Positions 154 to 64,000 of a DNA stretch of 64,000 nucleotides are shown one piece after another. This DNA comes from Amoebophrya sp. A120 (lineage: Eukaryota > Protista > Dinoflagellata), in the NCBI GenBank assembly GCA_905178155.1, contig CAJINV010000002.1:3849838-3913837 (forward strand), in the 5' to 3' direction. Below the pieces are notes generated by a model. That model saw nothing but the letters and a program-made list of their open reading frames with translations, searched no databases and was not told where the DNA came from. A program made the translations under genes and the position numbers. Position 1 is the first letter of the stretch. The number at the start of each line of letters is the position of its first letter.

Positions 154-3100
154 CACAACTACCACTACCACGACCACCACCACGACCCACCCGTTACTAC
201 CCCGGGGTTTTGATCTGCAGCTGAACATATCAAATGCAAAAGTGTCTGGGTCTGGAAGAATGCAACTTGTGTGTGATGCTGCATTTGGAAGTCTAAAAAA
301 TTTGTGTTGCATGAGCAGCAAAAGGAGAGGGCATCTGTCATGCGGAGTAGGCGGGAAGAATCCCTTTAAATAATTGTGATGCTAGAAGGGCATGCATCTG
401 AGACATCAGGGCTCATGCAAACCGTGCATGACAATTTCCAGACCCGGACATTTTTGCTTTTGATAGAACATTCCCACAGCTAATGTCGCCGATGCGCTCG
501 CGGATCCGGACTTGGCAAACGCAATGATAGGACAGTGCACAACTCCCCCTCCCCCTCATTGGGATGGTATCCGCAGCATTGCAAGTTCTGGCAGAAATGT
601 AGCTTTTGCATGACAGACAAATTTACGACTGATTGTAGTGCTGTTTCGGCTTCGGGAATCTGTCATGCATAGTAGTGGCACAAGGCAGAAGGTGGAGTTG
701 GTGTTTTGCATGAGAAATGAGAACGAGGGGGAGTTGTGCAGTGTCATAAACGAAGGCCGCGGTTGTGAAATTTTTGCAGACCACAGCGGGGTTGAGCGAC
801 CTCACTATGGAACAGGTGGAAGACTTAGAGATTAGGCCGAAGGAAGGGACGCAACCACCCAACGTAGAAGTGGAAGTGACTTTTCAGCTGCGGGTATTGT
901 GAGGAAAAGCGTCCCCAAGAACCCAGAGGAAAGATTTGGGGATTTTTTCGCTACACAAACCTAGAAGTTTTTGGAGTCAACACGCATGACAGTTTATTTG
1001 GCGTCGGAGTGTAAAAGCTGTGTTTCGTAAAAGTGCATCCACAATAAATTTCAAAACACCGCTAGAAAACGTTTCTTATGGGGCTGCGCATGAGAAACAC
1101 TTTGAGATTGCAGGTTCTTCGCGTGGCAAGTTCATGGGGTTTTCTGACGTTTTTCCTCAGGATAGCGGGTTGAGCCAGACCTGGTTGACCAGGTCAATGC
1201 AGTTTGGAATCCCGACGAACCGATGGCACAGGGTAGCGACGCACTGGCTGCGTTGGGGAGTGCGCTCAAAGAGAGCGTGAATGAGAACGACGAGCTAAAC
1301 ACAGACATGACGGTGCCGGAGACTGGGGGTGTGGAAACAGTCATTGTGACAACGACGACAATATCCAGTGGATAATGATGATGTCGTGCTCTTTGGGTCT
1401 GGAAAATAAATGAACTTGTGATGCAAGCCTGGGCAGGATGTCTGTGCGCACTGCAAGACGCAACCAAGCATGACAAGTTTCTCAGCTCCTATGTTTTATT
1501 CTTGCGTATAATTCCGCATCGCAGGAGTGGCAAACTGTGTTTTTTCCTGACAGGCATTCTTCGTGACCATATGCGTCTTCACAGCAAATGCAGGATCATG
1601 CCAGACAAGCAGGACAAAAGATCTAGCCTTTTTCCGGACCCAAAGATCAATATTTCCGAATCCATAGACCACCACGACGACCCTCGATCCAAACAGTTCC
1701 CCACCGCCCACGCAGCTCCGGGCCTTGCAATTTGGTCTCAACGCGGGGGAAACCAAGACAACCGAGGAAAGCCAGGCGCTGCTTGCCAGCGCGGATTTCC
1801 GGAATGCGATTGTGATCGGGTTGCGAACGTTTTTCGTGGAAAAAAATCCGGAATTGAGTGAGGATTTATCGCTGGAAGACTTTCACCCCGTGGACATCAG
1901 CTTGGCGAGTGGCGGTGGTGCTGCGTCTGCTCTGTCGTCGTTCATACAAATGAAGCAGAAAAAGACTGGTCTGTGGTCCAGCACGACAACACGGGGCAGT
2001 AGGCTTCTACAGGAGGAAAGAAGAAGTGGTTCAAAAAGAACTGCTTTTACACCATCACCTACACGGACTTCGCCCTCATCTCCTTCCCTACCTCACACAG
2101 CGGACGAGAGTCCTCACAACGAGACTACTTTCGCTAGTGTCAAGAAAAGCAGAAAACCGCGGAAACTTATCAGGGCTGATTACGAAGAGGGTGATCTTCA
2201 TGATTTGCAGCAGCAAGAGCAAAGAGTTCTTGTACGCAGCAGAAGTGAAGCCGAGTCTTCTTTTCTGGAGGAAGACCACAGCGAAATAAATGCAAAGGTG
2301 GCTTTGAAGAGGATGAAGAGCAGCTTGGCCGTGAATGTGCAGTTCGGCATAACGCCCAGCTCCGCTGATCTGGAACAGAAACTGAACAATATCAAAATGA
2401 AAAATCCCCCCTCCCCATAGTGAAAGCGCATCCATCTGAAAATTTGTGATGCAGATTTGTGACCACAAATCTTGGTACAAATCTTGTCTGTCTTGCAAGA
2501 AGGCAGGTCCAGGCTGCCCGGCACGTTAAGCGGGCGATTTGTAATGCTGTAAGGCCTACAGGGCAACCGTCTTCCATGCTAGGCGCCTACGCCAAAAGGC
2601 CCCTACCTAGGCTCACGATCTGCGTGCGGTGCTCTACTGCAACACAAATTTGCTTTGTGTACTGAAATACAGCATCACAAATTTCGTTTTCGATATGGGG
2701 TGGTGGCTTTTTTCACTTTGATAAACAATGTTTGGCCTTCAGTCCCGGCCGGGTCCATCCCCACGCCAGCGGACGAGAGCACGCTGGGCTCCGCGGCTGC
2801 CATGTCATATCAAATGCAAACATGTCTGGGACTCGAAAAACTTGCGATGCGGAGCTGCGAATAAGTTAAATCGGAACAGTTGTGCGGGCAGCCAAGCATG
2901 ACAAGTTTTATTTAAAGCGCTCCCCTAATATAATTGCTACTGCGCATGACAAATTGCGTTTCTGCCCGCGGCCTCGACGAGAAGCTGCTGCACTTTTGTC
3001 GGTTATGCAATACAAGCAATGTTGCCAGATAAGCATGACAAGCTCCGCTTTTGCTCTAGACCCACACGACAGATTTGCATAATGCATAGGTCGAGCCTGG

Positions 3101-12289: not shown

Positions 12290-13395
12290 GTGACATAAGT
12301 CACAGCATAGGTCGGTGGGCGAAGCAGTGGGGCGGCTCTGCACGGTATTTTTCCGAGCTGCTCGTGACAAGAAGGTTAAAAGCAAATTAAGACGGATGGA
12401 AATTTCTTTTTAACAAGTTGGAATGATTGACTGACTTTGTAAAATTATATGGTGACAGCACGAAGAATAATGACTAAAGTAAGACAGACGAAGACGCAGA
12501 TGAGTATATATTGCTGTTGACAGCTAGAAGGAGAATAGGAATCAACACGAACAGCTGCAGAGCGAGCAATTAATGCTAGTAGACAAACTTTTGAAGTTTG
12601 ACAAGTTCTACAAAATCTCCTGTACCTTGCTTGTATCAAAAATGTGGAACTTATTGCAACACTCTACTTTTGAGTGTTGCAAATCGAATGAACTCCTATA
12701 CGTAATTTTGTGCTTGAAAATAAGATAAAAAAAAAATGATTACGCGTACCCGCGCGCAGTTCGAAGATGCCGCTTTTATCTTCGAGCGGGCTCTCGACGG
12801 TGCAACGTGTTGACAGAATCAACTGTGGAACGAGTTGACTCTGTGGTTCACAAGGTGTTCGACGACGCAGGGGTGCGGGCGCGGCCTTCCTGTCTGCGAA
12901 GAAAACAAATGCTTCCCTAGGCCGCCCACTGGTTCTTGGCGACGATTATATCTCTTTTGAGGAAAAAGGCGATCCTGCTGCTGGTGAAGGATTTTTTGAA
13001 GGCGGGAAGTTCTGCTACGGCACGACGTTGTTTTCCCTTCTCCACTTTACAAATGCCGGCTCTTCATTTCCAAGCTGGCTTGATGTTTTCCATCGGATCT
13101 TTCAATTTCTGATTCTAATTTTTCTTTTGTTCAGGCAACGGGTGGATCTTCTTTCGAGTGTCCAAACTGAGGAAGACAAGTTTAGGTGTGTAGGATAGTG
13201 GTGTTTGATATTTTCTAGAGCTGATATTTTTTAGTCTCACTTTGTTTCTTTTTCATCTTACATGTCGCCACATGAGAGAGGTCGCATTCGCTAGTATTTT
13301 CAGACCGGATTTGTTGACGCACGATAATGCTCCCGATCATGCTCACTTTTTTTGCAACTTTAGTCGGCTAGAATTTTCCGTAAACCACTAAAAAG

Positions 13396-16300: not shown

Positions 16301-19300
16301 CCTCCTCATGATACGCCACCCAGCATCACAAGTTTCCAGACCAAGACGCTTTTGCATTTGATGCTTAACTTGCTGTCGCATTTTGAAGTCGTGGCTTTCT
16401 GGCATCGTGTATTGAGAGGAAAAATCCCCCCTCCCCATATTGAAAAGGTATGTTCGCAAGAATTTGTGTTGCGGATTTGAGGTCACAAATCACATCTGTC
16501 TTGCAAGAAGACAAGGGCAGAAGCTTCCGCCCCATTATGGAAGCGATTTGTCATTCTGCTGGGCTTAAAGGGGGGCCGCTTGCCATGCTGAACTACTAGA
16601 TCCATACGCCCCTCCCTAGCCTGGGGATCTGGCCGCAGTGCCTCTCTGCAATACAAAGGTGGTTTGTGGTCACAAATCAGCATCACAAATTTCCGTTTTG
16701 ATATGGGGAGAGGGGATTTTTCATTGTGATATCGTGGCGAAGAATAAGATGGATAGGAACAACGCCAATAGCAGCTCGGCGATGTTGATGGGTCAACAAT
16801 CCGGGAGAAGAAATAACAGCACTGGTTCCTCCGGTGGAAACAACAAAAAATCGACCACGACCAAGATACTCGCCGTGGCAGATACAAATATCGCAGCGGA
16901 TAACCTGTATTATGGGTTGAAAAAGCTGCTTTTGGAACAGCAAACCACGAGCGGGTCTTCGTCTACTTCGGGTGGGGGGCAACTACATGCTGGCGGCACG
17001 CTGAAACAAGGACAAACCCTATGTCATTGGAAAAAACTGCCCTAATCATGTCTTCACCGCTGTGGGGACGATGACGTAGCAAGCTCTGATGTATCAGTAT
17101 GTTGACAGACTAGGAGAGAGTTATCCATGATTCGAATGATCACGAAAAGACATTGCTGTAAGACCACGCTGGTACAGTTCGTTCTTGTTGCACTCATTTT
17201 AGTACCAAGTATGCGAAAAACTACACGTGCTCGCGCACCACAGTAGGAGAGGACTACTACATGGAGCATAATTTTTCTCGTTTTATAACTTCCCCAAATC
17301 GCGAGGATAGGCGTGAACGCCGACGGGGATCTGTTGGAAGAACAGCTGAAGTCCCACGCTCTGTACTCAAGGCTGAACAGCTACAGAAATAACGAAGAGA
17401 ATACAACTTCTAGTGGACATAACGCATCAAACAGTGGCACGAATAAATCTGCCGTCGAAATTGCGAAGTTGCGGCAGCAAATGACTTTGGACATCGCGGA
17501 GCAAGCCATTGTGCTGATAAGCACGAGCGTCGGCATCGCAAACCCCATGTTTGGCTGCGGAAACAACAATAGTATGGGGACGTCGAACATGTTGCGCCAC
17601 AGTGCAGCTGCAGAAGGCGCTGCAACAGGAGGAGGAGTTACAGCTACTTCCAGTTTTGTTTTCGAAAAGATTTTGATCGACGAGTGCACGCAGGCGACGG
17701 AGGTTTCCTCTCTTGTCGCGCTGACGAAGGGGGGAAGCGCGTTGAAATCTCTCGTGCTCGCCGGGGACCACATGCAGCTGCCCCCGACGGTCGTGTCCCG
17801 GTCGGCTATCGTATGTAAAAACGTGGTCACCACCTCAGAGTTGTGATGCATGTTTGCAACGACAGGGTTACATTTGTAATGCGGTTCTACATGAGAGGCA
17901 TGTCCTGTATCGTGTTTTGGCATTTGTGGTGCTGTAAACAGGATAAGGAGATGGGTTTGTGGTGCGACTGTCCTTGCTAACCTGTACTACATTACAAGGG
18001 CGAACTTGTCATGCATCAGTCCCAAAACTTTTGGATTTGTGTTGCAGACTTCCCAACTTGACTCCGGGGTGGAGACGTTTTTACAAGTGATATCGGCGAA
18101 GGCTTGTTTATCGCTGTCTTTATTCGAGCGGCTAGTTTCGAAACTGCAGTATGGCCGGTTTTTTCTGGATACGCAGTACCGCATGAGAAGTAGAAAATTG
18201 TTGGACTTTGTCAACAAGGAGTTTTACGGGAGTAAGTTAGGGGATGGATTCGGTGGACTGGCTGACGAAGGAGCTGAAGCGAGCCAAGCATGTTTGGAAA
18301 CAGGACAACCGGTTGGTCGTGCGGAAAGAGAAACGGCTCCGTCTCCCCTCGAAGTTCCGGCTATAATTGCTGCGCGCGAGAAAGCTGCCACACGTCCTCT
18401 TCCCGATCTCGCACTGGTGGTAAAAGATGGTATCCGGGTAGACCAGGGCCCCTGCTCAGACCAGGGCCCCTGGGACCAGGGCCCCCAGGACCAGGGCCCC
18501 TAGGACCAGGGCCCCTAGGACCAGGGCCCCTACGGATTGGGGCCCCTGCGGACTGAACGGCATCCCGGAATCTGGTACACGGCGCGGCGCGGCCGGAAGC
18601 GGAGATGTCTACCAGCGGATCTTCCAGTCGAAATAATCTGGGCCACCAAGTAAGTATGCATGTCATGGGACTCCTAGTATCTGGCCAGGAGGTAGAAGAA
18701 GGTAGGCCACAAGTAATATGGGACGCAGTCGGCTGACTACTCAGAGCATTTCTCTCACTTTCTAGATTCCTCGACGCGCGTCGGCGTCACAAGTTCTCAG
18801 TTGTGCAGACCCAGATCTATTTACAATGCAACGGGCATCGTTTTTTTTTGTAGTCAGCCACGTACTTGAGCTTCTCCGTCTGTCTTTTTTGGGTGGTGTC
18901 GTTGAGGAATCTTGTGCATTTTTTCCCTTGATGATGCTTGTCTGAACGATTATTCTGTAAATCTCCGCCCTTTGGGTGATGCGTTTCTGGCTGGCAATCC
19001 AGCTGGAAACAATTGGAAAATGCATCTGCAGCGCATTTCCGCCTGGAAATGCAGCTGCAGATGCCTTTTCAAAGCTTTTCTAGCTGGGACTCCAGTTGGA
19101 AACATGCAGAAAAGGCATCTGCAGCGCATTTCCTCCTGGAAATGCAGCTGCAGATGCCTTTTCTCTGCATTTCTCGCTGGAATTCCAGCTGGGACTCCAG
19201 CTGGAAGCATTTGGAAGAGGCATCTGCAGCGCATTTCCACCTGGAAACGCAACTGCAGATGCCTTTTCAACGCATTTCTAGCTGGAAATCCAGCAAGAAA

Positions 19301-21600: not shown

Positions 21601-22205
21601 ACTGTGTTGAAGAAAATCAGCAGACCCTGGAACAAAAGCGATCAAAGTATGTAGGCAAACAATTCTGGGTGTAATTTTACACCTCTTGTCCTGACGCGCA
21701 ATGTGACCGAGTATACTAGCTCTAGCTCTGATCGTCCCTCACCACCAGCTCTGCCGCCGCAAAGGCACCAGGCGGTAGGGCGCAAAAGAGGCATCATTTT
21801 CTTGTGCGTTGTGGTAGAGTTGTGCAGCGCAAGGTCGTGTTTACTATCCTTTCTATCTTCACAACTACGTCGTGCAGTGACGTCGTGTAGGAGCTGTCTT
21901 TTTTTTTTCGGTCTACTTAGTCGACTAGCGGAAGTTGTAGAAAAGTGCCATTATATCGGTTTTGTGATTAAGGAAAAGAAATCATGTTTAACGATCATCA
22001 TACTTCGGTTGATGTTTTGCAGAGTTACTTGCGTCCATCGGTGTAGTAGTACTTCTACTTGCATGTGCAGTGTTTCACACGGCTCTGTCCCTGTACCTGC
22101 GCTTCTCGCCCACAGCGCTGTGTAAGCAAGAAGCGCCGTCGGTTTGGACGTGTCGATCCGTTTTGTCTTCACCTCGGTTTGGACATGTGGATCTACTTTT
22201 CCTTG

Positions 22206-23910: not shown

Positions 23911-26900
23911 ATGTTCGGCTCCCACCTCTTTTTCGCGGTGGTCCAGTTCTTCCAAACCCTGGGGATCGCATTCTATTTGGAGCTCACCGATCTGTACGCG
24001 ATCCTTCTCACCACGGACCCAGCGCTGTTTTTCATCGTGTTGGTAACGATTGGGTTTTTGGCCCTCACGGTTGATTTCGGAGAATTGCTCCTACCATTCT
24101 TGTCCGGGTCGTTGTTCCCGGCCGCGCTGAAGAAGAGGGGAACAACTGCCAGTGCAAGAGGAGTTAAAAATGCAGGTCCCCCAGGCGCGGGCCCAACAGA
24201 AGACCACGGACCGCCATCCGCCATGCGGGTGTGTGGTACGCGGCTTGTAGCGGAGGAGATTGCGCGCGAAGAAGTTGTGGAGTTAGTAGAACAGCAAGGA
24301 GTCACGGAATCCACTATCCCGCCTTTTTCTCCTATGACACGAAAAAAGTGTATAATGCGGTTCTTTCACATTTGTTGTAGCTTCAGCAACACAAATGTAA
24401 ACCTGCTCAGCATGATGACAGAAGGAGGCTGCTGCAGTGGAGAGAGCAGAAAGGAAAGTGAAGCATGATCGTGAACTAGGGCTGGGACGAAGCATGCTCG
24501 ACATGACTGAGGATATTTTCTATCTTGCTGATTTTGCATCACAGTGTGTAAGAACTGTAAAGAATTTTTCCCTGCGATATTTTCCTCGCTCGGGATGAAC
24601 GTGGAGTCTTTGGTTACCCCGGAACTTGACGAACTTATTTTGGCGCCGTCAAATGGAAGTGGCGGAAATCAAAAGGATCCCATCAAGCCCGGTAGCATGA
24701 TTTCGGAAGAAGAACAAGAAGACGAAAGTCAAAATGAGGAATTGCTAATCAAAAGAGCTGCGAACTACAATTACGGGCACGATGCTCTCATTGTACAGCA
24801 AGAACCTCCTGCAGGCGTCCTCCCAGGAGCTGGCTCGGGTTCGAGCACGACAAGTTCGGAGAAGGCGATATCTCCCTCTTCATCGCCGATGAGTAAAAAC
24901 AAGAAGAACTACCCAGGAGCTACTACTACTTCTACTGGTCCGGCAGGTTTGGGACAAGTAGTAGAAAACGACTCACGACCTGGATCTGCTCCTTCGGTTG
25001 AGAAGAATTTTCCGAACAAACAAGCGGCGCAAGACCAAGACACGATTCTGACCGCCCAGTCACGGACCGCGAGCCCGATAGCCCGCCTCCGCGGCCGAGA
25101 GGCGAAAATTTCAGAAGAGGACCGGCGATCCGTGGTTCTTTCTAACATGATGAGAAATAACGACGAGCCCACCACGACGAACAACACTACTAGTAGTAGA
25201 CAAAGGGCGCTTTCCGATAGTGGTGTGGTTTTCAACACCACCACTGGCATGCCGAGCGGTGGAGAGAATGCACAACTACATACGGTCGTCGCATCCTCCT
25301 CTCCCACACCTAGTGTAGAACTTCCTGGAACATCAATAATACCAACAAACAACGACAGCACATCAGTTTTTCCTTCTCTAACTCTCGACACGCGCACGAG
25401 CTCGACTCTGTCAGGCCTGAGTTCCAAGAACACGAAGCGTGTGAGGTTGCGGACCAGTGAGGTTGTTTCGAGTGCACCAACCGGGGAAGATGGGACGTCC
25501 ACTACTACGTTAAGTGGCTTCAACACGAGCAGTGTCGTCGTAGGACCGGGCACAGGGTACCACTACCATAGCACTTTTCAACACCCCCGCGAGCGGCATC
25601 ATGGTACTACGCAAGAACTTTCCAGGAGTGCGAGTGGCGGCGCGCCAGGGCGGGGGCCAGCAGCGGCGTTATCTTTTTTGGATGAAAAAGGGAGACAAAA
25701 TTTCGGCGGAGGAAGGCAGCGGAATGGTGTTGGTGGGACAACAGGAGCACGCGCACCGCCGTCGAGCGGCGTCGCCGGCCTTCCGAGCTTGGCTTCGTCC
25801 TCCAGTTTGAGCATTGGGGATCGCATCCGCATTCTGGCTATCAAACGCAAATATGTCAGTCTGGTGGTGTGTCTGGGAAGAAGTAGTTGTTATGCAAGTC
25901 TATTGATCGGCTGCGCACTGCCACTGCAATACGTAAGTATAGATGCGCCGCTAGGCATGATGAGTTCATTGTGAGTTGCTTGGTGTTGCGCCGTGGTCCG
26001 CATAGCAAGCTGCGTTCTTTATGCATGACAGGCAACTGGTAGTAGAGCTAGGTCAACATCTTTTCGCGTCTAAGCACTACAGCCCGCAGCGTGATGCCAG
26101 ACACGCAGGATCGCAAATTATATTGTGATGTCTTCTTGCTCCAGAAGATGAGCACCGAAATGGCATATTTGCACTGGATACCGGCAGAGGAGCTGGAGGA
26201 GGAAGAGAGACGGGAGAAGCTGAAACCAGCAGATCCACAACAAGTGCGGGCGAAGCAATTATCCAAATCCTCCTCTACTTCCCCCGTTGTACTATCAGGC
26301 CGAAATACTTCTTCGTCGAATAACAAGCAACAGGTCACCACCATCCAGGGAGCCCTCGACGCTTTGTCGGCGCACCAGAATATGATGCTTGCCGACCGGA
26401 CGCGGAGTCCCGGGGGGACTGCTAGTACTTCGAGCGTCCACCTCGGGCAGAAAAACTACAAACGGGAAGATTACCAACAAGAAGAAAGCGCGCACAACTC
26501 TACATCCCATTCTCCCGCATCGACCTCCTCCCCCGGGGGTTTCAGTGCGGCCTCCCCGGTCACCGTGGTTGGCGTGCCGGGGCGAGACCATCACGGGCTG
26601 GATTCAGACGAGGACGCGGAGGTGCTGGCAGCGGAGTATCAAACGGAAAAATCCCGCCTCCCACCTACATCAAAATACGAAATTTGTCATGCTGTATTTG
26701 AGTACACAAATCGACTTGTATTGCTAGAAGGCAAAGAGGCGCAGTCGTGGCTTCGTTTGCAGGCAATTTGTCGTGCTTTTTCCCACTTCCAGCTGCCTCC
26801 TTTCATGCTGAAGATGCAAGGCTTTCCCACGCAACCCAGCACTGCAGTCCGCATCTTTTCCCTTCTAGCATGACAATGCTGATTTGTGGCCACAACTCTG

Positions 26901-38200: not shown

Positions 38201-38396
38201 AAGTGTAGTCCTGTTTGGGCTCCTTCCGGAGTTTCTCATGCAAATACTGCCGAGAGGCACAGCCTGGATTTGGTATTTTGCATGACAAATGAGAGGGAGG
38301 GGGAGTTGTGCACTGTCATAGGTGAAGAGCTTTCTCTATAAGGTACGTACCTATTTTCTCAGGATCGTAGTTTCATCTCTACTCCTGCTGTTATGA
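32219..38396 (+). CDS. Hypothetical membrane-anchored protein (single N-proximal TM); 15 introners plus 1 GT-AG intron; 3' end uncertain
   Basis: MSSSGAAGGHPNNK...RRWIDYLLVAGLVIFATGILLDFCL...; continuous frame after element removal; possible further GT donor at 38343. Confidence 0.7.
32316..32600. mobile_element. Introner family C
   Basis: DR cgagc/cgagc. Confidence 0.9.
32669..32898. mobile_element. Introner family B (opposite orientation to 50672)
   Basis: DR cacgg/cactg. Confidence 0.85.
33369..33625. mobile_element. Introner family A (opposite orientation to 16112)
   Basis: DR tcttt/tcctt. Confidence 0.85.
33676..33940. mobile_element. Introner family A
   Basis: DR cctgg/cctgg. Confidence 0.9.
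34066..34281. mobile_element. Introner family B
   Basis: DR gtttc/gtttc. Confidence 0.9.
34331..34640. mobile_element. Introner family G (TIR TATGGAAGCGTCAGGATCGAAATCGACAAAGTTG)
   Basis: DR actac/gctac. Confidence 0.85.
34783..34999. mobile_element. Introner, F-like
   Basis: DR ttcaa/tttag; sister of 46444. Confidence 0.8.
35043..35317. mobile_element. Introner family A
   Basis: DR ggagc/ggagc. Confidence 0.9.
36034..36300. mobile_element. Introner family A
   Basis: DR tctcg/tctcg. Confidence 0.9.
36375..36660. mobile_element. Introner family C
   Basis: DR cgtga/cgtga. Confidence 0.9.
36729..36990. mobile_element. Introner family A
   Basis: DR gtaca/gtaca. Confidence 0.9.
37034..37245. 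mobile_element. Introner, F-like (reverse copy of 53670)
   Basis: DR tgcac/tgcac. Confidence 0.9.
37278..37458 (+). other. Probable canonical GT-AG intron
   Basis: gag|gtataa...aataaacag|tct restores the frame. Confidence 0.65.
37532..37805. mobile_element. Introner family A, divergent
   Basis: DR tgcgg/cctgg. Confidence 0.75.
37864..38023. mobile_element. Introner family E, divergent
   Basis: DR aggcc/agctc. Confidence 0.7.
38099..38320. mobile_element. Introner family B
   Basis: DR ggtga/ggtga. Confidence 0.9.
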
Positions 38397-39124
38397 AGCT
38401 GTCTACAAATAAGTAGAAAGAGAACTACGCATTGTTATGGCATGACAATGAAACACTCTCAAGCTGTTCAAGATTGATTTTCTCCAAAACATCAGACGCG
38501 CAAGGACCTGGACCTGTCCAGTCGCTTCAACCTGGGTTGGTTCTACGTGCTGTGGCCCGATTATCCTGGCGAAGAATACAATTGTACGTCTACTTATTTT
38601 TACCCAAAGAATAAGAAACACGGTTGTGACGGATCATGTGGGTGCAGCTTAGTAACCGAAAAAAAGTCAGGTGCTGTCGTGTTTGTCATGCGGCTTGATG
38701 ACAGACTGTGCAGGTGCATTATCGTGTGAAGAAGCTTGCTGTCTTCACCTTCCGCCTGCCCCGGCAAAAATGAAAGGCGCTGTTTTCTGGTGACAATATT
38801 AAATGATGTACAAAAAATTTCCTGTCCATACCGTTGCGGACAACCCAGAATTTTATCAGGCGTGCGAACGGGCAGGGCGAAATCTGGCCGCCATCACGAT
38901 AAAATATCACAAAACGGTACTACTAGGAAAGATGGGAATTGTTTTCGGCGTTTTATTTTTACCGCGTAGCTGTTGTTGATGCATGTTCATGTAGTACCTA
39001 ACGTTCTATTGTGTTCTTGTCATCGATCCCATTTCTTGCTGGTACGTCGCGGCGACTGCAGTGACTAGAAGGCTTAGTGGTTGTGGCGCTAAGGAGACAT
39101 CAGTAAATCAACTGTAAGCACAAA

Positions 39125-40352
39125 ATGCAACCTGTCCAGGTTGCTAAATACCCGCACCTGATTCCGCTGTCCACCCTCCGGCTGCAGTTTCCCGAGCACG
39201 TGCGCTCGAATGAGAAGGCGGTTTCGGCCACGTTCAAGGGCTTTCTGGTGCAACTAAAAAACCACTACCCGGAGTCCCTCACGGCGAAAGTTCCGGCGCC
39301 CAAGCGCGTCGAAGTGCGCACGGTGACGGAGGTTCACGGCGACAACGCGGAGGATTCCAGCGCCGGAAAGCGACTTAGTGAAGCGGAACTGTACGAGAAA
39401 GCTGTCCGGAAAGTGCTGGAGCTAGATTCCATCGACAGTGCAAGCAACGCCTTTCTCCAACCCGCAGGCGCGGCGGGCGGACGGAGTAGTGCTTCATCTG
39501 CGGCCCACCACCTCGGGGACGAGGAGGGGACCAGCAGTGGCGAAGCCGGTGACGCTGCAGCCGTCCTATCAAATGTAAAAATGTCTACTGGGTCTGGAAG
39601 AATACAAGATTTGTCATGCATGTTTCATATGACCCATGATGCTTGAGATGCATGACCTAGCATCGCAGACATTTAGAGGGCTTCCTGATGCACCTGCCGC
39701 ATGAGAAATGCCCTGTCCGGGTAGCACAAACTGCACCCCTCTTGCTGGTCATGCAATACAAATTTTTTTACCGTCCAAGAACAGCATGACAAGTTGCATT
39801 CTTCCAGACCCAGACATTTTTACATTTGATACGTCCGCACCGGGCACGAAAGCGTGACACAGTTGGGGGACATATCGTGAGTAAAAAAGTCTCCACACCA
39901 GAGTCAAGATGGGAAATCTGCTAGACAAATGAAAAAGCTTTGGTTGTTTCGCATGACAAGCCTTTCCCCGTAAAGTGCAGTCCTGCTTAGCTAGTTCCGA
40001 AGCATCACAGATCTAGCCCAGCATGCTCATTCGAGCATCACAAATTACAAAACACGACTAGAAAATGGCCCTCATGGGGCGTCGCATGAGAAACTTTTTT
40101 GGCATGCAGATTTGCATGACAGCTCTGGGGAGGTGGGGACGTTTTTACTCAGAATAGGACACGGCGTTTACGAACTCGGGCGACGGGAGTCGGTACGCCG
40201 AGGCCAGCGAGGAGCCAGACACCATTGAGCCGGCCAGCGACGAAGCGGTGCTCGGTTCTTCATCTCCTGCGAAAGAAGAGCGGGAGAAAAAGGATTCGGT
40301 CACGTCGTACTCCGAGCGTCCATTGGGGAAACGCAGCCATCGCCACCGGTAG
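39125..40352 (+). CDS. Hypothetical protein (about 222 aa); 2 introners
   Basis: Exons 39125-39566, 39837-39872, 40162-40352 total 669 nt ending TAG. Confidence 0.7.
39567..39831. mobile_element. Introner family A
   Basis: DR cgtcc/cgtcc. Confidence 0.9.
39873..40156. mobile_element. Introner family C
   Basis: DR ggaca/ggaca. Confidence 0.9.
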
Positions 40353-50200: not shown

Positions 50201-53200
50201 ATGTCGCCTCCGACTGCGGCCACATCGTATCTTCAAAACCGCCACCGCAGGGAACTGCTCCTGGTGCAGAAGTCACTGCTGCGGCAGTGGTCGCGGTCGT
50301 CGGCCTACTACCTGCAGGTATCAAATGCAAAAATGTCTGGGTCTGGAAGAATGCAACTTGTAAAGCGTATTTCAGAACACGGAAACGTCTCTCATGCATA
50401 CGTAGCAAAAGCTCCCACTTTTTGTCAGCAAAATAGGGGACTTGTCATGCGGATTCGGCATTGCGGAAGGTTCTCGAAACCTGTAATGCTAGAGCTTCCA
50501 TGCTAGACCTTCTGTGTCATGCAAAAACAGCATGACTCTTCCAGACCCAGACATTTTTACAGTTGATAGCAGGCGCTGCTTGACCAGTCCAAGGTGGATG
50601 CGATGCAGGATAAAATTGTGGACCAGTATGCCGCCTATCCTTTTTACCGATCGTGCCGGCCGCAGCATGGGTATGAGAGTGCACAACTCCCCCTCCCCCT
50701 CACTTGTATGGCATGAACAGCAATTCAAACACCAGCACACGTGGAGGCTATGCATGACAAACTTATGCACATGCGCCTGATGTAGTACTGTTTGGGCTTT
50801 CGGAATTTGTCATGCAAACAGTGCCACAGGGCAGCGAATGGATTGGGGGTTTTGCATGACAAATGAGGGGGAGGGGGAGTTGTGTACTCTCATAATGGAC
50901 GGCCACAGCTCGGCGGCGGAGGTGGAGGCCCGCCTGTAACCGAGCTCCTCCTCTGGCTGGATCCGGGCGAAGCTGGGTTAGCCCTGGGTGGCGACTACTC
51001 TTTCCACCGTGGCTATGGAACTGTCAGGATCGAAATCGACAAAGTTGAAAGGATTTGCCATGCATAAAATTGATATCAGTTGGAGCCTCAGTTTGCAAGC
51101 GGCGCCGACAAATTTCGGGAGCACCCAAATCCAGTCTGTCAGGCTGTTTGGGCAAAGAAGACTGCTCCTGTCGTGCTACTCTGGCAGCAGCACATTGCAC
51201 ACCCCTAAACAGGCTTGCCATCGGTCTCATTTGCCTGCTCCCCAACACAGGCCACACGGGCCCTACATTTTATGCATTACAAATTATTTCAACTTTGACG
51301 ATTTCGCGCCTGACGCTTCCATAGTGGCCAGATGGAGAAAAGGTACCGGGAACGCGTAGGCTTAGTATCCCATGAAAAAACTGTTTCACTGTGATGATCT
51401 TTCAAGATCTGCATCACAAGTTTGTTACACATGACACAGAAAATTTGCCATGCGCGCTTCCCAAGGGAAAAGACGCTGAAAAATCCAATGTCTTGCAAGT
51501 GTAGCAAGACAAATTGTTCTGTGCTCTATTCTCTGCATCACAAGTTCACAGTGAAACAGTTTTTTCTTGCGATACTTAGGGTCAGAAGACCATTGGATCA
51601 ATCAGCCCATCTCTGCTCCTATCAAATGTAAAAATGTCTGGGTTTGGAAGAGTCACGCTGTTTTTGCATGACACAGAAGGTCTGGCGTGGAAGCTCTAGC
51701 ATCACAGGTTTCGAGAAGCTTCCGCAATGCCGAATCCGCATGACAAATCCCCCATTTTGGTGACAAAAAGTGAGCGCCTTTTGCTACCAATGCATGAGAG
51801 ATTTTTCTGTTTTCTGAAATGCGCATCACAAGTTTGGACTCTTCCAGACCCAGACATATTTGCATTCCATAGCCCCCGCAAATAAAGACGCGCCAGGGCC
51901 AGCGTGGATTACGGATCATGAAGCCACAATAAATAAGCCCGACCACGACCCGGCGACGCGAGAAGAGGTTGGAGATCAAAGCCCCATGATGTCGTGGTAT
52001 GGGGCCCCCATACCACACTGGGCCAGCGAGGCGCTAGACAAGGTGCAGGAAACGCACGAGCTCTTCGTTTTGATGCTACAGGGGATTTATCAAATGTAAA
52101 AATGTCTGGGTCTGGAAGAATGCCAGGTTTGTCATGCACATTTTGCATGACTCCTGATGTCTGTGATGCATGCCCTAGCATCACAGATTTTGTGAGGGCT
52201 TCCTGATGCCTGTACCGCATGACAAATGCTCTTTCCGTGTAGCAAGACCTGGACTCTCTTTGCTGCTCATGCAATACAGATTTTTGTAGAATAGAAAATC
52301 AGCATGACAAGTTGGATTCTTCCAGACATCCAGGGATTTTTACAGTTGATAGGATTTATCAGACCCAGTTCGGTTCCACGTTAGTATTATATTACAATGA
52401 AAAATGCCCCCACCCCCGAACTTGAAAGCATTTGTATTGCAAACCTTTCCAAATGAAACATTCGCCCTCTTGCATGTATCAGCATCACAGATTTCCGATC
52501 GTGAATAACAAAAATTTCTATTGCAAAAGATCCCAGCAAGAGCGGTGCTTGTCATGTAAGCGATGCGAAACACGACTAGAATCTGCATCAGAAAGATTCA
52601 TACTCCTTTCATGCATGACAAAAAGTTTTCATTTGGAAACTTCGCATCACAAATTTTTGCAACTTTGGGGTGGGGGGCACTTTTCACTGTAATATATTAA
52701 CGACAGATCAACTTGAACATATTAAACAAGCCACTGTACGACTACAGCTAGAAGCTCCACCTGGAGCAGTAGGGGGTGAAGAAGGCACTACTACTTCCAA
52801 TGCGGGTCGTCAACCGCTGCTGCTCGACGGGACGATGACAACTGCTATGAGTGGTTTTGCTGCGCCGCCGCCGCGCAACTCCACAACAACAACCGGCGTG
52901 ATGTCCAGTACCGACACTTTCAATAACCCGGCGCCAGGTCTTCTGCAACCAGAAGGCCTGCTAGAAGTTGAAGACGACGTCGCAGCTGCCGTGGGGCGGT
53001 TGTTAGTGCAGGACGTGTTGCGGGCGGGCATGTGGAGGAGAAAGTTCGCAGACGCGCTGCTGCTGTCGCACCCAAGGCTGTTGATGCAGCTTGACAACAA
53101 CTTGATTCAGGCAGAGAAAAATAAAATGATCGGGATCAAGAACCCAGCGGCCCACGCGAGTGAAGGTTGGGACGAGATGACCCGTCGCAACCGCCGCCAT

Positions 53201-56200
53201 GATGTGCATAACCCCTTTCTGCAGCATATCCTGAGTAAAAACGTACCCACACCAGAGTCAGGATGAGGATTTTGCAACACAAACCTACGAGTTTTGTGAG
53301 TCACGCATCACAAGTTGCACCATGCAGTGTAGTGCAGGTTAGCAAGTGCAGCCGCATCACAGATTCATCTGCTCATCCTGTTCACAGCATCACAAATTCC
53401 AAAACACGGCTGGAAATGGCTCTCATGGGGATGCGCATTACAAGTCTTCCTGTCTTTGCAAATCTGCATTACAACTCTGGTGTGGGTACGTTTTTACTCA
53501 GGATACAGCACGGCATGAGCGTGGGGGGAAAATTCCTGCTGGAAAGCAAAGAGCAAACCGCGGACACGAGTATTTCGGGCCCGCATAATGCCATGGGCCC
53601 GGATGGGGAAAGAGCAACAGAGATTTCTCTAGAGATGTTGCATGCCCATGCTGGAAAAGAGCAAGAGCTTATCACGAGAAAAAAAGCATTGTAGGTGTAA
53701 CTTTTTTGGAGGAACAGCATTACAAATTTGTCTGGCATGACAGCAAAAACCTGTCATGCGCAGACAGTACGTGAAAACGCCCTTTAATGGACCCTACGAT
53801 GCATGCCAAGCATGACAGACGCAATCATCTTGCATGTTGCGCATCACAAATTTACACTAGCCGCGTTTTTTTCTTGGATAGAGCTGAAAAGCGTGAAACG
53901 GAAACGGCTCTGGAGAAGCTGGGTGCTCCGCTTGCTGTATGAGAGTGCACAACTACTCCCCTAGTACCCCTCATTTGTATTGCATGGACAGCAACAGCAC
54001 ACGTCCTGGAATCAACGCAGCTTTTGCATCATGACAAATTCGCGAGGACCGATTCTAGTGCTGTTTCTGCTTCCGAAATTTGTCATGCAAGCAGTGCCAA
54101 ATGGCAAAGGATGGATTTGCTGTTTTGCATGACAAATGAGGGGGACGAGGGGGAGTTGTGCATTGTCATACTTTGCAAAGACAAGGGTCTTATGAACTGC
54201 AAAAGCATCGCACTCGTATAAATGCATTACAAATCTCCTCAGCATGAAAAATAAAATTTGTAATGCTGATTTGCCTTCAGAAAAAAATTGCAAGACTTGC
54301 ATTTATACGACTACGATAATTTTGCACAGGATAGGTCTATCCTCCGCCCGGTCAAAGGCGGCGAGCCGGCCTTCTTCCTGTGGCGGAAGGCGTATCAAAG
54401 TGAAAAAAACCCCCTCTTCATTCTGAAACGGGAATTTCTGTTGCTGGATTTGTGTACACAAATCAGCGCTGTATTGCAGCAAGCGCTTGCAGGCATTTCG
54501 TATAAGTAGCGTGATTAGGTATGCAAGAGGCTAGCACTCAGGCATGACAGACAGCCTTGCAGTAGGCAAAAGCGCACGACAGCTTGGCTTTGAAGGCGCC
54601 ACACGGGTCGCATTTGCCTCACATGCAAGACAAAGCTCACAAATCAGCATCACAAATTTATTCCATTGTGGAGGGGGGATTTTTCCCCACGATAAGGCGG
54701 AGGCGTTGTTTCTGCCCCCGATTGGGAACCGGTTTCACAACTACCCAGAGAAGGGGGCCTTTATTGCCGCAGAAGATGCTGAAAATGTTGTTGTTGTTGA
54801 AACCAAGAAGCATCCTCGTCCACTGTATGGGCCAGTAAATTCCCTGCCACGAGGACCTGCAGGACCACCTCTACTACCTCCATCTTCGTCGTTCTTGGGC
54901 GGGGGCAACATTCAGCAGGCGGACGACGCTCCCGATGTCGTGCTAGAGGTGACCACGCCAAGTAGATTTCTGCAACTGCCACCTCCACCGCCTGAAGTAG
55001 CAGAAGATTTTGGCTTGCTGCCTAGAAATGGGGGTCAAGCAGGGGCGACTGCGTCTTTCCTCACTGTAGCGGTTGGTACAACAAAAGCCACACCTTCGAG
55101 CGGTGCGGCAGCAGGAGCAGCAGCATCGGCCCGCCCAGACGAGGACACTACTACAGCGAGAGTCAGAGACCGAGCCTGGCTGCAAAAGCAAAACAGCAGA
55201 GCCGCAGAAGGGGAAAGGAAAGAAACTTCTACTTCTGTTGCAGATGAAGTCTTCAGCATGGTGCCAGAGGAGGACAAAAAAGCTGCTGCTGCAGTAACAC
55301 AAGCACCAGCCGCGAGAGAAGGTGCAGAAGAGGGTGCTGAGCAGCCGGAAAATGTTGACATAGGGGAAGAGGGAGGAGGACAGACAAAGAACTACTTCGG
55401 GAACGACGAAGAAGACGAGGAAGAATCTGGGCGCCCTCTTTCGCGGCGGCACAACAGCTGGTTGGGAGGGGGGAACATTAACTCGATGGGCGGCTTCCCC
55501 GTGGTCGGCCGCGACGCCCGGTTCCGGTCGGAACTCCCACTACAAATCGCGGTGCGGTCCAGTGGGGCAAGCGTGGGAAGTATCCTGTGAGAAAACGTTC
55601 CCACAGCATAGTCAAGTTGGTAAATTTGCAACACAAATCTCCAACTTTTGGACACATAGTATATGCATGACAACATTGGACTCGTAGTGTAATCCTGTTT
55701 CGGTAGTGCAGCAGTATCACAGATCTAGCGCATCATGCTGCTTGGAGCATGACAAATTCCCAAAGCCGACTAGAAGAAAATGCCTCTCATGGGGCCGCTC
55801 CGCATGAGAAATATTTTCAGCATGCAGATTCGCATGGCAACTCTGGAGTGGGGACGTTTTTACAAATGATAGGGAGTGCCGCTTTTTTACTCCCGGTCGA
55901 GCGAGACCGGGAGCTCGAGGACGAGGCGGATGAGCAAAACAGCAGGCCTATCAAAATGAAAAAAGCCCCCGCCCCATATCAAAGGGGAAATCTGTGACGC
56001 AGGATTTGTGTACACAAATGCGCGCTGTCTTGCAGTACGGCATCGCAGCCAGATCCGCAGCCTAGGGAGGGAAATTGGGTCTAGGTGCTTAGCATTACAA
56101 ACGGCTGTCCTTTAGGCCCCACAGCTAGTATGCCAAATCGCTTCCATATTGGCGCGGAAGCCTCTGCATTTGTCTTCTTGCAGGACAGACGTGATTTGTG

Positions 56201-59200
56201 GTCTCAAATCAGCAAGACAAATTTTCGCAAGCATGCCTTTTCGATATGGGGAGGGGGGATTTTTCTTCTCAATAAGGCCCGCCAGGCCCAGGGACCTCGG
56301 GGTGCGGTATCCGGATATGCTCGCGAAAGAAGAAGAGCAGTTACGAGAACTCGAGCTCTTCTACCACGCCCGGTACGAGATAATCCACGGCGAACAGCAC
56401 GCCGTCTCGCTGAAATCCGATTACGAGACAGCCATTGTATCCTGAGTAAAAATGATGTCCCCACACGACCAGAGTTGTCATGCAAATCTGCATGCCAAAG
56501 AAGTTTCTCATGCGGAGCCCCATGGGAACCATTTTCTATACCTGTTTTGGAATTTGTAATACTAGAATCAGCATGATAGGCTAGGTCTGTGATGCTTCGG
56601 AACTAGCTAAGTAAACAGGATTACACTACGAGGATAAACTTGTCATGCGAAACAACCAGGGGTGGCTGATTTGTCTAGCGGATTCTTTCCCATCTTGACT
56701 CTGGGGTGGGGCCGTTTTTGCTCAGGAGACATTGCCGCTCTTCGCCAGGATTGCACGGCTTATCGCTACCTCTCGGTCCCTATCAAATGTAAAAATGTCT
56801 GGGTCTGGAAGAATGCAACTTGTGATGCTATTTTTGGAATCCAAAAAAGTCTGTATTGCATGAGCAACAAGAGGCGTCCAGTTTTTACTCCGCGGAGAGG
56901 GGATTTCTCATGCGGGATAGGCATCAAGATGCCCGCAAAAAATTTGTGATGCTGGTGCATACATCACAGACATCACGGGTCATGCAAAATGTGCATGACA
57001 AACCTGGGAATCTTCCAGACCCAGACATTTTTACATTTCATAATCCCGCTGATGGCCCGACAGGATTTGATCCTGTTGGCGGCACGCCAGGGCTGCGACG
57101 ATATTCCGCACTACCTGCCGCTCCAGCAACAGCTCAATATGCTGTGCAAAAGTATCGTACTCGTATAAATGCAGGTCTTGCATTACAAATTTCTTTGTCA
57201 AGGCAAATCAGCATTGCAAATTTCATTTCTCATGCTGAGAAAATTTGTAATGCATTTATACGAGTACGATGCTTCTGCATTCCATACTCAATTTCACGAT
57301 GCAATTTACGAACACGGTTCCGCGGTGGCTGAGAGAGGACATTGGCGAGCAGGCGGATCTGCATCTGCTATCCCAGTCTCCGCAGTGGTCGGAGACAATT
57401 TTGGATTCGTATTTTGGGCCCAAATTTTTCGCGGAACTCGCCGCTGTGAACGCGAACTGCCTCTTTTCCCTTCTTCGGGTCTCGCGGGTGGACATTCGGT
57501 TTTCGCGCTTACTCTCCGTGCTACAAAAGGAGGAGAGCGATCGCGCCGATGTTGAACAGGAGGCCAAGGAGGATCATCAACATCTTGATGTTGATGCTGG
57601 TGCAAGAACAACTTCTACTACTGCGAAAGATGGTGCGCCGCAAGAATCGTCTTCTTGGGGATTTCTGCTGCAGAAAGAAGACGCGAGAAATGGCTTCCAT
57701 ACTCGCAGTATCAAATGTAAAAATGTCTGGGTCTGGAAGAGTCATGCTGTTTTTGCATGACACAGAAGGTCTGGCATGGAAGCTCTAGCATTACAAGTTT
57801 CGAGAAGCTTCCGCAATGTCGAATCCGCATGACAAATCCCCCACTTTGGTGACAGAAAGTGGGCAGCTTTTGCTACCCATGCATGACAGATTTTTCTGTG
57901 TTCTGAAATGTGCATCACAAGTTCGGATTCTTCCAGACCCAGACATTTTTACATTTTATACGCAGCTCCGCGGTGCGGCAAATGGTGCAAAAGGCCGTAG
58001 TATCCTGAGTAAAAACGTCCCCACCCCATAGTTGTCATGCAGCTGTGCAATGACAGGACGATTTGTAATGCGCATCCCCATGAGAGGCACTTCCAATCGT
58101 GTTTTGGACTTTGTAATGCTGTAAACAGGATGAGAAGCTCACTTTCTCATGCGGCTGCCCTTGCTAAACAGCACTACGCTACAGATGGAAACTTGTCATG
58201 CAAAACTCCCAAAACTTGGAGATTTCTGTTGCAGATTTACCAACTTCACTATGGGGTGGGAAGGTTTTTACACAGGATACGTAGCTGGCGCCGGACTGCT
58301 GCAGTTTCAGGCGATGCTTGTGCGCAACTACTTTCACTACAAAACGGAGTACCTCCCGGGCCACGCGTATGGAAGCGTCAGGTTTGAAATCGACAAAGTT
58401 GGAATGATTTGCCATGCATAAAATGCAAGGCAGGAAGTGCGTGTCTTGCCGGGATGGCAAGTGAGGCCGACTGTCAGCCTGCTTCGGGTTTGAAATAAAA
58501 CTGCTAAAGTAGCATGACAAAAGCAGTCGTCTGTGCCCAAACAGCATGCCAAATTGGATTCCGGCGCGCCGAAAATTTCTCATGCACCGCTTGGAAATTC
58601 TGCTTCCAACTGGTATCGATTTTATGCATTACAACTTTGACAATTTCAGTTCTGACGCTTCCATAACGCGGTCAAGCTGCGCATCGAGGCCGGGGATTTC
58701 CGGCAGCTGGAAGTGGCCGCTCGTGGTCTTGAAGCTACTAGTAAAACTGGTAGTCCTGCTTCTAGAATGGCAACTCGAACTACTCTATGAATTGCAAATA
58801 GGTATCGTACTCGTATAAAAGCATTGCAAATTTCCTCAGCATGAGAAATGAAATTTGTAATGCGGATTTACCTTGAGAAAAAAACTTGTAATGCATGACT
58901 GCGATTACTACGAGTGCGATACTTTTGCACAGGATATACTCCTGCTTCTACGTCGGCGCAACGGTTTTGGCAGCGGCGAATGGAGCTGCTGCAGTATCTT
59001 TCCATAGCGACCTATCAAAATGAAAAATCCCCCCTCCCCATATCAAATTGGAAATCTGTGATGCAGGATTTGTGTACACAAATCAGCTTTGTCTTGCAGT
59101 AGAGGGCTGCACGCAGATACAACAAAGCCTGGGTTGGGCCTTTTTGGTGGTGGCGCCTAGCAAGGGAGACTTATCCTCTGCACGCCATACAGCATTACAA

Positions 59201-62200
59201 ATTGCCCACAAATTCCGGCGGAGTCTCTGGCTTTGCCCTCTTGCAATACAAGGACGATTTGCGTCCACAAATCAGCATCACACATTTTTCGAAGTATGTC
59301 TTTTCAGTATGGGGAGGGGGATTTTTCCATACGATACGACCGGGGAGGACGCTACCGCCCGGCGTCGCAGAGACGTCGCCGTGGATGCGCATCTGTGGGT
59401 GGCGGCAGAAGAGGGCTCCGCTGACTATACCGAGGCGCGGTCGGAGAGAATTTTAGAAAAGGGACGATATGGATCGCATCCATATACAACTTCGGCTCCC
59501 ATCCAGCAGGAAGATCTTCTCCTTGCGCAAGATGGTAAAACTTCTCGACGACGAGGTATCCAAGGAAAAAACTGTTTCACTGTGATGATTTTGCAAGATC
59601 CGCATCACAAGTTTGTTACGCATGACACTGAAAATTTGTGATGCGCGCATTTCCCACAGGGAAAAACACGGTTGAAACTCCAATGCTCTATGCAGGTGTA
59701 GCAAGACAAATAGTTCTGTGTTGCATTTTTTGCATCACAAGTTCACAGTGAAACAGTTTTTTTTTGCGATACGAGGACCAGTGTTTCCCTTCACGATCGT
59801 CTTGCACCGCAACGACTTCTATGCATCGCAAAAATGTCTGGGTCTGGAAGGATGCAACTTGTAATGCTAATTCTGGATCGTGCAAAAATCTGTGCTGCAC
59901 GAATGCCAAAAGTTGTCCACTTTTGACCAAGTTGGGAGGAGGTTTCTCATGCAGGATAGGCATGATAGGGGTCTCACAGAATCTGTCATGCTAGCTCCTG
60001 CATTCCAGACGGCATGGATCATGGAAAATCTGCATGACAAATCTCGCAATTTCCCAGACCCAGACATTTTTGCATTTGATAACTTCTACAACTTTCGATA
60101 CTTCTATCCGAGTGCACAAGTAGAACTCGCCCTCCGTCTCATTTGGAGTGGAGCATGAACAGCAATTATAAATACAACAAACGCCAGCAGGAGGAGCACC
60201 TGCGGAGCTAGTGCATGACAAGTTTATCAGCCGACCGTAGTACTGTTTGGGCTTCAAAAATTTATTGCCATGCAAACATTCAGTGCTACAGGTTCTTGTA
60301 CAGGCGGGAAGCAACTCGATTCGGCATTTTGCATGACAAATGAGGGGCACCAACATGTTCGGGTGTAAGGAGTTCCGGGCAGTGCTCCGTGCACCCTTGC
60401 GACACCACCCCGCATCGCCCCGGGTACTTATGCATGACACATGAGGGGGAGGTGGACTTGGAGTTGTGCACTCGGATAAGTTCAATTTTGATCAGCAGCG
60501 GGGCGTGCACGATGGTGCGAATAGCCTGCGGGCGGTATCAAAAGGAAAAATCCCCCCTTCCCATACTGAAAAGGTATATTTTTGGAAATTTGTGATGCTG
60601 ATTTGTGGTCGCAAATCGTGTCTGTCTTGCAAGAAGGCAACTCCGCAGGCTCCGCCGCATTGCGCGGCCGGTTTGTCATGCTGTTGGGCCTACAGCGTGG
60701 CTGTTTTTCGTGCTAAGCGCCTAGGCCAAAGCCTCTCATCTATTCAAACTTGGTATGGGCTTACAGTTCTCTCCGGCAAGACAGCTCGGATCTATGTACA
60801 CAAATTCAGCATCAGAAGTTTCGTTTTGATATGGGGAGGGGGGATTTTTCCTTTCGATAGGCGGCGGGGGAACGAAAAATCGAAGGCGGGAGGAGCAGAG
60901 GCTTCATACAGGGTGATAATACTTCTATGCCCCCACCACCCTGTAATATTAACAAGTCTAACTACTTCTATGAGGATGGTTTTCTCTGGGATTTGAAAGA
61001 ACAGCGAATTGTTCCAGATCCAGCAGCAACAGAGAATGAAACAATAAAAACCGATGAAACAAGTACAAGTGGCACCACAAATGTTGACCAGGGCAGAACT
61101 ACTGCCTCTGCTGCACCTTCTTCAAGAACGGAGGTAGACGCCGCGGGTCCTCCCTGCAGGGACGAAGGGCAAGATATTGTGAGGAAAAATGCTCCCTCCC
61201 CATATTGGACAGGTATGGTCCTAAAAATTTGTGATGCTGATTTGTGACCACAAATCCTGTCTCTCTTGCAAGGGGGCAAATCCAAAGAATCCGCCGGCCT
61301 ATGCAGGCGATTTGTAATGCTGTTGCGGCTACATGGCAGGCCTCTGCTATGCTAAGCACGTACATCGAAACAAACCTGCGCAGGCTCAGGCTTTGCCTGC
61401 GGTGCCTCACCGCAAGACAGAGCTGATTTGTGTACACAAATCCAGCAACAGACGTTTCAATATGGGGAGGGGGGATTTTTCACTTTGATACAAGAATCTC
61501 TACCGCCGGAAGTAGACGATAGAATTATTTCGGGCGGCGGCCCGGAGCCGCTTTTTCACCGATATGCATTGCAAAAATGTCTGGGCCTGGAAGAATGCAG
61601 GACGTGTCATGCTTGTCTGGCATGACTCTTGGATCTGTGATGCGTAAGCAGGAACTGGGTCTCCTGCCTGTCATGCAAAAACGCAGTTTGCCATGCAGAA
61701 AACGAAGCACATGGCACGTGCGAAAACTTGTCATGCTTGGCTGCATATTGTAATGCGTCCACGATTCACAGATTTGCATCACAAGTTTCCAGACCCAGAC
61801 ATTCTTGCCTTTGATAACCGGCTCAAAGTCACCATTTTGGAGAAAGACGTGCCTGACGTGAACTTGGTCCGACTGCTGAGCAAGGGTGACGCCGAAGATC
61901 AGAAAATAGCGTCCGGCCGGTTTGGGCATTCCTACCAGGAGCGACACCAGAAGTGGCGCGGCTTCTTTCTGAACGATATGGATTGCAAAAATGTCTGGGT
62001 CTGGAAGATTGCCACGTTTGTCATGCATATTTTGAATGACCCATGATCTCTGTGATGCATGCCCTAGCATCACAGATTTTACGAGGCAGGCACGATGCCT
62101 CTACCGCATGAGAAATGCCCTCCCCGCGTAGCACAAACTGGGGTCCTCTTGCTGGTCGTGCAATACAAATTTTTTTAGAATCCAGAGACAGCATCACCAG

Positions 62201-64000: not shown

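Follow-up and report, generated by a model that had tools for sequence, protein, structure and literature searches.

Short subterminal repeats that serve as transposase-binding sites are known from the hAT elements Ac, Tag1 and Tol2 and, as TnpA sites, from En/Spm; hAT target duplications measure 8 bp, against 5 bp in the elements treated here. For the hAT element Herves, the part of the description covered here gives a subterminal 8-bp transposase motif, CG/AATTCAT (PMC3143072). Introner elements of Amoebophrya sp. A120 have already been published (PMC7789003, Farhat et al. 2021; PMC12130899, Gozashti et al. 2025). In the parts of these accounts covered, some 30,000 repeated introners of A120 fall into 1,954 families, neither a transposase nor a U1 snRNA is identified in this organism, and general mobilisation by transposases is argued against (PMC7789003). 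One A120 family with a 5-bp target duplication (TSD) and TA/TA termini is listed as Ginger-like (PMC12130899, supplement file 8).

The window (the whole stretch of DNA analysed, 64,000 nucleotides) belongs to this introner host, A120: a 202-aa stretch of a helicase gene (20045-20650) is 100% identical to an A120-named protein.

Element set and families

TIR elements make up 39% of the window (25,111 bp). An automatic finder followed by manual curation yielded 94 elements, and a 95th (38562-38830) was added on RNA evidence. The elements are 143-374 bp long, apart from one 889-bp copy with a nested insert; a truncated element copy ends at position 153. Their interiors cluster into families, and every multi-copy family was found inserted in both orientations. 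The hallmarks of MITEs are present, namely TIRs, a fixed-length TSD, both orientations and no coding capacity. After removal of the elements the long frames of the window lie on the + strand, and element length plus 5 is evenly distributed across the three reading frames.

228..63103, strand ".": span of the 95 delimited TIR introner elements, TAT..ATA ends, 5-bp TSD, nearly all motif copies inside
Family A1, starts: 228, 4598, 7757, 10402, 10997, 27971, 28706, 33676, 35043, 36729, 37532, 39567, 45150, 48529, 52088, 56781, 59820, 61977
Family A2, starts: 3891, 36034, 50319, 51620, 57709
Family A3, starts: 1362, 2808, 3384, 16112, 29048, 33369, 42668, 61563
Family B, starts: 895, 17807, 30000, 32316, 36375, 39873, 46712, 53227, 55581, 56438, 58001, 62812
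Family C, starts: 2390, 5434, 8419, 16410, 26637, 28302, 54393, 55949, 59013, 60536, 61175
Family D, starts: 528, 32669, 34066, 38099, 50672, 53938, 60105
Family E, starts: 3149, 27204, 41983, 54191, 57138, 58786; also 9097 (nested insert)
Family F, starts: 10108, 11454, 49370, 51366, 59557
Family G, starts: 34331, 45490, 46088, 51014, 58368
Family H, starts: 24335, 34783, 42200, 46444
Family I, starts: 37034, 53670
Singletons, starts: 4958, 10750, 17020, 20651, 25839, 27537, 37864, 38562, 47903, 49008, 52390

Representative elements are as follows.

56781..57042, +: family A1, 262 bp, sites at element positions 41>, 72>, 126>, 165> and 220<; absent from an RNA-like contig
50319..50568, +: family A2, forward sites only
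57709..57960, -: family A2, only reversed sites on the sense strand
61563..61816, +: family A3
58001..58279, +: family B, sense-strand sites all forward at 33, 64, 112, 145, 194 and 225, which make three 31-33 bp pairs; spliced
53227..53505, -: family B in the opposite orientation, sense-strand sites all reversed; still spliced
60536..60859, +: family C1, an inward pair at each end, 56/88 measured from the left and 44/77 from the right
26637..26951, -: family C2
50672..50894, +: family D
27204..27352, +: family E, 149 bp
51366..51574, +: family F, 209 bp; measured from its right end, an inward pair at 33/64
34331..34640, +: family G, TIR without A-tract, yet two 32-bp pairs
34783..34999, +: family H
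37034..37245, +: family I, joint seen in RNA-like contigs (217 skipped = 212+5)
38562..38830, +: old element, TIRs decayed, with a single motif copy; its removal persists (274 skipped = 269+5)
17020..17287, +: old element without motif in the helicase gene, likely removed since it has stops in all three frames

The TSD was perfect in 54 of 82 elements with clean TAT..ATA ends, with a per-position match of 88-94%; the sixth flanking position matched at background level, so the duplication measures 5 bp and not 6. No target-sequence preference was found among the TSDs of these 82 elements. An asymmetric or offset direct repeat of the tyrosine-recombinase type, suspected by eye, was rejected, the duplication being an even 5 bp. 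It was initially held that the TIRs of the families are unrelated, and this has to be given up: all families fit the single 5-bp duplication, and their TIRs start with TAT, most of them with an A-tract further in (positions 11-15). Within the TIRs, positions 1-3 and 11-15 are stable; the stretch between them, positions 4-10, differs strongly from one arm to the other and from copy to copy (20% mismatch).

The shared internal motif

The strict motif, TGTNATGC/GCATNACA, was matched 265 times in the window (124 forward and 141 reverse), against 7.4 matches in shuffled sequence (maximum 12, n=50), and 257 of the 265 lie inside elements, giving 10.2 per kb as against 0.21 per kb outside (ratio 49.8). 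A first-order Markov control of the element DNA predicted 7.8 matches where 255 were seen. Outside the elements, 2 strict matches fall in 9,033 bp of intergenic DNA and 7 in 29,264 bp of genic non-element DNA. At least one strict copy was found in 92 of 94 elements, at least two in 81 and at least three in 53, and the motif is present in all 12 family groupings. The initial annotation was therefore right that nearly every element of all families carries the motif and that it is much rarer elsewhere. Its statement that an inward-facing copy lies shortly inside each TIR was borne out in part: of 94 elements, 43 have such a copy within 60 nt of both ends, 35 of one end and 16 of neither.

The free position N is T in only 2 of the 265 strict matches. 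The wider motif reads A-Y-Y-T-[G/C]-T-[C/G/A]-[A/T]-T-G-C, and thus includes the TCTCATGC and TGTNTTGC variants as well as an A-Y-Y 5' flank. RBFOX-like and ApiAP2-like motifs were considered and set aside; TGCATG is enriched 17.7-fold, below the full motif. An Rfam scan of the 64 kb gave no match at gathering score, and no matches were found in the viral contigs searched.

Another public assembly, not necessarily from A120, was scanned with the TIR pattern in 14 of its 64 parts, with loci chosen by the family A TIR. At least 155 loci (488 kb, non-redundant) and 467 full copies, harvested irrespective of TSD, were obtained. The same 12 families occur there, and the motif stands at 12.3 per kb inside elements and 1.4 per kb outside, a class that still includes undetected elements.

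Two places in the window, 8906-8945 (a 32-bp pair with sites at 8913 and 8945) and 11733-11965 (two single sites), are likely introns without recognisable TIRs and may be very old elements.

In the searchable literature, which leaves out subscription papers and figures, no published description of the motif and no match for helical-turn spacing of such sites was found, and the two 8-mers do not occur in the main text of PMC7789003. The motif and its spacing rule are apparently an undescribed cis-element grammar within a known introner system.

Spacing of the sites

Copies had initially been placed about every 20-45 nt. This holds for 56 of 163 gaps between strict motifs and 139 of 295 between broad ones, with medians of 48 and 35, and the actual pattern is a sharp class at 31-33 bp, or about three helical turns. 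The following modules illustrate it.

56821..56859, +: module with sites at 56821-56828 and 56852-56859, of one direction and spaced 31 bp
L016:1260-1368, L021:7806-7914 and L042:1008-1119: minimal elements from the fetched loci, one site degenerate in two of the three

These minimal elements (n=3) are 109-112 bp long with perfect TSDs and consist of two TIRs and one pair position, with sites at 44 and 76.

The spacing statistics count one unit per family or singleton. Of the 21 units, 14 contain same-direction pairs at 30-33 bp, 21 pairs in all, as against a mean of 3.1 and a maximum of 10 in 5000 sets of random placements; the best 4-bp window anywhere reached at most 12 pairs in 2000 null sets. 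When 10 related units were dropped, the pair remained in 12 of 17 types (null 2.5, maximum 9), and out of sample it was found in 4 of 10 clusters unlike the window families (null 0.62, p=0.003). It is present in 72 of the 95 window elements. Among harvested copies it occurs in 286 of the 337 whose TSD is perfect and in 91 of the 130 whose TSD is imperfect.

The initial annotation had proposed phasing near 10.5 bp as a check for DNA binding, and a scan of periods from 8 to 14 over 53 neighbouring gaps indeed peaks at 10.5 bp, with a mean cosine of 0.56 (0.28 at 11.0). None of 400 jittered sets matched this peak at any period; the test uses one fitted centre offset of 1 bp. The gaps lie near 11-12, 21, 29-34, 51-54, 63, 73-76 and 104 bp; those of 7, 18, 39-40, 44, 49 and 67 bp depart from this series. 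Once the 30-33 bp pairs are taken out, p=0.003-0.013 is obtained at 10.5 bp, the value stated beforehand, and p=0.05-0.14, which is not significant, with the period left free. No distinct 10.5-bp peak appeared when all sites were phased against the element ends; the first inward sites cluster 33-35 and 41-45 bp from the element end.

Conservation and decay

Decay was followed in 458 copies, 9 copies with 4-5 TSD mismatches being left out. The five fixed bases of the motif differ from the family consensus in 5.1% of cases and other interior bases in 24.4%. TSDs mismatch at 7.0% per site over the two copies, and motif mismatch is higher by 0.021 (0.010-0.034) in copies with an imperfect TSD. Hence, it was concluded that the motif is maintained in lineages that transpose and for the most part drifts once a copy has inserted. 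Its decay amounts to 0.64 (0.32-1.11) of the increase seen at interior columns that are conserved. Decay at the neutral rate in old immobile copies had been named at the outset as a refuting result; the interval spans the neutral rate, which counts against a mark for introns and not against a role in transposition, and the ratio leaves room for partial host-level constraint on the motif. Considered as a splice signal protected by the host, the TAT/ATA ends showed no decay with snapped ends and a rise from 1.5% to 3.8% with unsnapped ones, so that this result depends on how the ends are set.

Removal from RNA

The RNA evidence comes from RNA-like contigs of one sample, whose status as RNA is a guess; that they represent spliced RNA is supported by the GT-AG introns missing from them too. 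One contig of run X3, 11,143 nt long, agrees with exons of the window without differences, and what it skips equals the summed length plus 5 for 39 elements, exactly in six of seven intervals and off by 1 in the seventh. Between 36900 and 43000, 12 joints in RNA-like contigs remove 10 elements and 3 other introns. Altogether 49 elements are bridged by such contigs, each removed at its length plus 5 and with non-canonical ends.

In the few elements where TSD mismatches are informative (37532, 37864, 38562 and 42200), the cut follows position 4 of the left copy, so that the intron comprises 1 nt, the element and 4 nt. The splice register appears fixed, from 1 nt before TAT to 4 nt after ATA, with an asymmetric overhang on the TIR stem. 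The introns without TIRs that served as controls are the following.

37278..37458, +: GT-AG intron, no motif
38917..39139, +: GT-AG intron, no motif
38342..38493 (approximate ends), +: intron preceded by a 15-nt micro-exon, with a single strict motif whose context is weak

The 15-nt micro-exon (38326-38340) lies between an element and a second intron.

Nature of the site and alternative explanations

Polarity of the motif is even (121 and 136 element copies on the sense strand, p=0.38). Among the 49 RNA-bridged elements, strict copies are forward only in 10, reversed only in 16 and lacking in 1; under the relaxed score 6 are forward only and 7 reversed only. The RNA-verified introns without TIRs hold 0, 1 and 0 strict copies (1 copy in about 556 nt of GT-AG intron in total), and decayed elements that are still spliced have one copy each (n=3). 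Even polarity, splicing of one-polarity elements, absence of compensatory pairing, GT-AG introns mostly without motif and decay after insertion together favour a site in double-stranded DNA over an RNA mark for introns. For splicing, the TIR stem and the ends are likely what matters, and not the motif.

The motif is thus read, with a probability of roughly 0.6, as a putative double-stranded-DNA binding site for one protein, a transposase or a dedicated helper, that moves all the non-autonomous TIR introner families. Several protomers would bind one face of the helix at the phased sites, help to assemble a transpososome and so join the element ends, and only copies with intact, correctly spaced sites would be copied; in such a model the motif is kept and the intervening DNA drifts. 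A single transposon lineage is the likely ancestor of all the families, and the 5-bp duplication together with the TA..TA ends predicts an integrase-like enzyme.

No transposase was found in the window or among 96 long ORFs scanned (90 of them from the 118 long ORFs of the fetched loci), and no autonomous partner in the window or in about 488 kb of fetched loci. Longer TIR-bounded stretches were considered as the autonomous partner and rejected as nested inserts, chance pairs or stretches without recognisable ORFs. Two longer TIR-bounded elements with perfect TSDs, L026:632-1465 (834 bp) and L020:505-1608 (1104 bp), have motif-free interiors; the six frames of the former gave no protein family match.

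All 95 elements lie within gene spans (drawn from open frames) and none in the 9,033 bp of intergenic DNA, where 22 would be expected. This suggests targeted insertion, or removal outside genes, and is not explained by the proposed binding-site model. Genic enrichment is common for introners, according to the part of a further account covered here (PMC9860276).

Because of the genic-only placement, a host factor remains a rival. A host DNA-binding or chromatin protein may occupy the phased sites and be exploited by the elements, whether by bending DNA for an integrase borrowed from an LTR retroelement, by targeting transcribed exons or by recruiting co-transcriptional splicing from the DNA. 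It would account equally for the phasing and strand symmetry, for the failure of the transposase search and for the placement in genes, and the point estimate of decay below neutral agrees with it. It is nonetheless judged unlikely, as the motif is nearly absent outside elements, unlike a general host site, and old elements with a single copy are still excised.

Less probable again is that motif and spacing have no current binding role and are a relic of an ancestral transposon's subterminal array or a consequence of hairpins and long, imperfect inverted repeats. A degenerate reversed copy stands at +15 in 15 of 27 modules and is not extra-conserved (0.80 vs 0.79); we read it as a sign of common ancestry. 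With the weak similarity of spacers between TIR groups (identity 0.35 vs 0.30 when shuffled), it indicates that part of the spacing may be inherited, and no indel constraint was seen in the 31-33 bp intervals (0.74 vs 0.78 per 100 bp in other intervals). In predicted folds the TIRs are paired in every family (0.73-0.98), and some opposite motif copies pair in those of A1, C and G. Predicted motif-motif pairing, however, runs from 0 in B to 0.75 in C1, with almost none in the consensus folds of B and A2; family B has no strong opposite sites, and no covariation between opposite sites was found at the free base in families with at least 25 copies. For this lack of covariation, motif-motif hairpins under selection were rejected. 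A relic also sits poorly with the conservation of the fixed motif bases, fivefold that of the remaining interior bases of a family, and with a motif that persists across families whose interiors do not align.

The initial annotation had left open a transposase or an RNA-binding factor, and its DNA half is the one supported, by phasing, cross-family conservation and decay. An RNA signal bound by a splicing factor and marking the element as intron would suit the exit of all tested elements from RNA-like contigs at length plus 5, the strict copy in 48 of 49 bridged elements, the site pair 8913/8945 surviving outside any recognisable TIR element and a U1 snRNA not found in A120 in the part of PMC7789003 covered, but is very improbable given splicing of single-polarity elements of either direction without strand bias, nearly motif-free GT-AG introns, a 10.5-bp period across both orientations that fits duplex DNA, and decay of the motif with age.

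The double-stranded-DNA binding site preferred here can be carried further, and in this full form is unlikely: all A120 families would be one transposon system, with a single protein on a site array of three helical turns, from an undescribed integrase-like group (TA..TA, 5-bp duplication) that inserts only into transcribed exons and maybe flags U1-independent splicing from the DNA side. The shared phased site suggests one mobilising machine behind introner diversity. The 110-bp minimal element and the 39-bp two-site module offer concrete baits, and with the likely mobility signal set apart from the splicing signal both questions become testable.

Other features of the window

An SF1 helicase gene (AAA_11, AAA_12; 13384-21600) and a FAM32A gene (41745-42975) are interrupted by elements; a search with the FAM32A exons found no homolog. 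The helicase gene holds a motif-free insert of about 1.6 kb (18400-20080) with GGGCCCC-rich inverted arrays at both ends and a flanking direct repeat of about 33 bp. The family E element at 9097-9985 contains a nested motif-free insert of about 720 bp, its outer ends and TSD intact. An intergenic stretch (22056-23647) is internally repetitive and may include a weak pair of inverted repeats with a 5-bp duplication; it has no motif.

Comparison with known systems

These comparisons extend to the parts of the cited accounts covered here. Non-conventional introns of euglenids are alike in a TIR-based RNA stem that joins the intron ends, TSD-like repeats and non-canonical junctions; they differ in lineage and end consensus, and no internal motif is mentioned in that part of their description (PMC11282704). 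IS3EU and GingerRoot elements resemble the present ones in TA..TA termini, TIRs and a short duplication without target preference. Their duplications are usually 6 bp, and Ginger ends are TG..CA, whereas the A120 elements combine 5 bp with TA..TA (PMC10045372, PMC6839031). The descriptions of GingerRoot covered include no subterminal motif. No coding element was found among the A120 sequences searched, and the comparison is one of ends and TSD.

The published A120 introners share with the window elements the TAT start, the A-stretch, inverted and direct repeats, a length of about 240 nt and non-canonical splicing (PMC7789003), and published family lengths of 149, 209, 252-262, 278 and 305-322 bp match window families (PMC12130899, 38 of 58 A120 rows). 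Direct repeats of 3-5 nt are given in those accounts, as against one 5-bp duplication in all families here, and the parts covered describe no shared internal motif or spacing rule (PMC7789003, PMC12130899).

The likeness to the subterminal repeats of hAT elements lies in a short motif repeated inside the TIRs, unequally at the two ends, and proposed as the site of the mobilising protein, putatively so here. In A120, by contrast, the sites fill the whole short element, span families with different TIR cores and are spaced at 31-33 bp. Judged from sequence, the A120 motif, with its putative binding, fits the subterminal-repeat pattern in being repeated inside the ends and conserved along transposing lineages.
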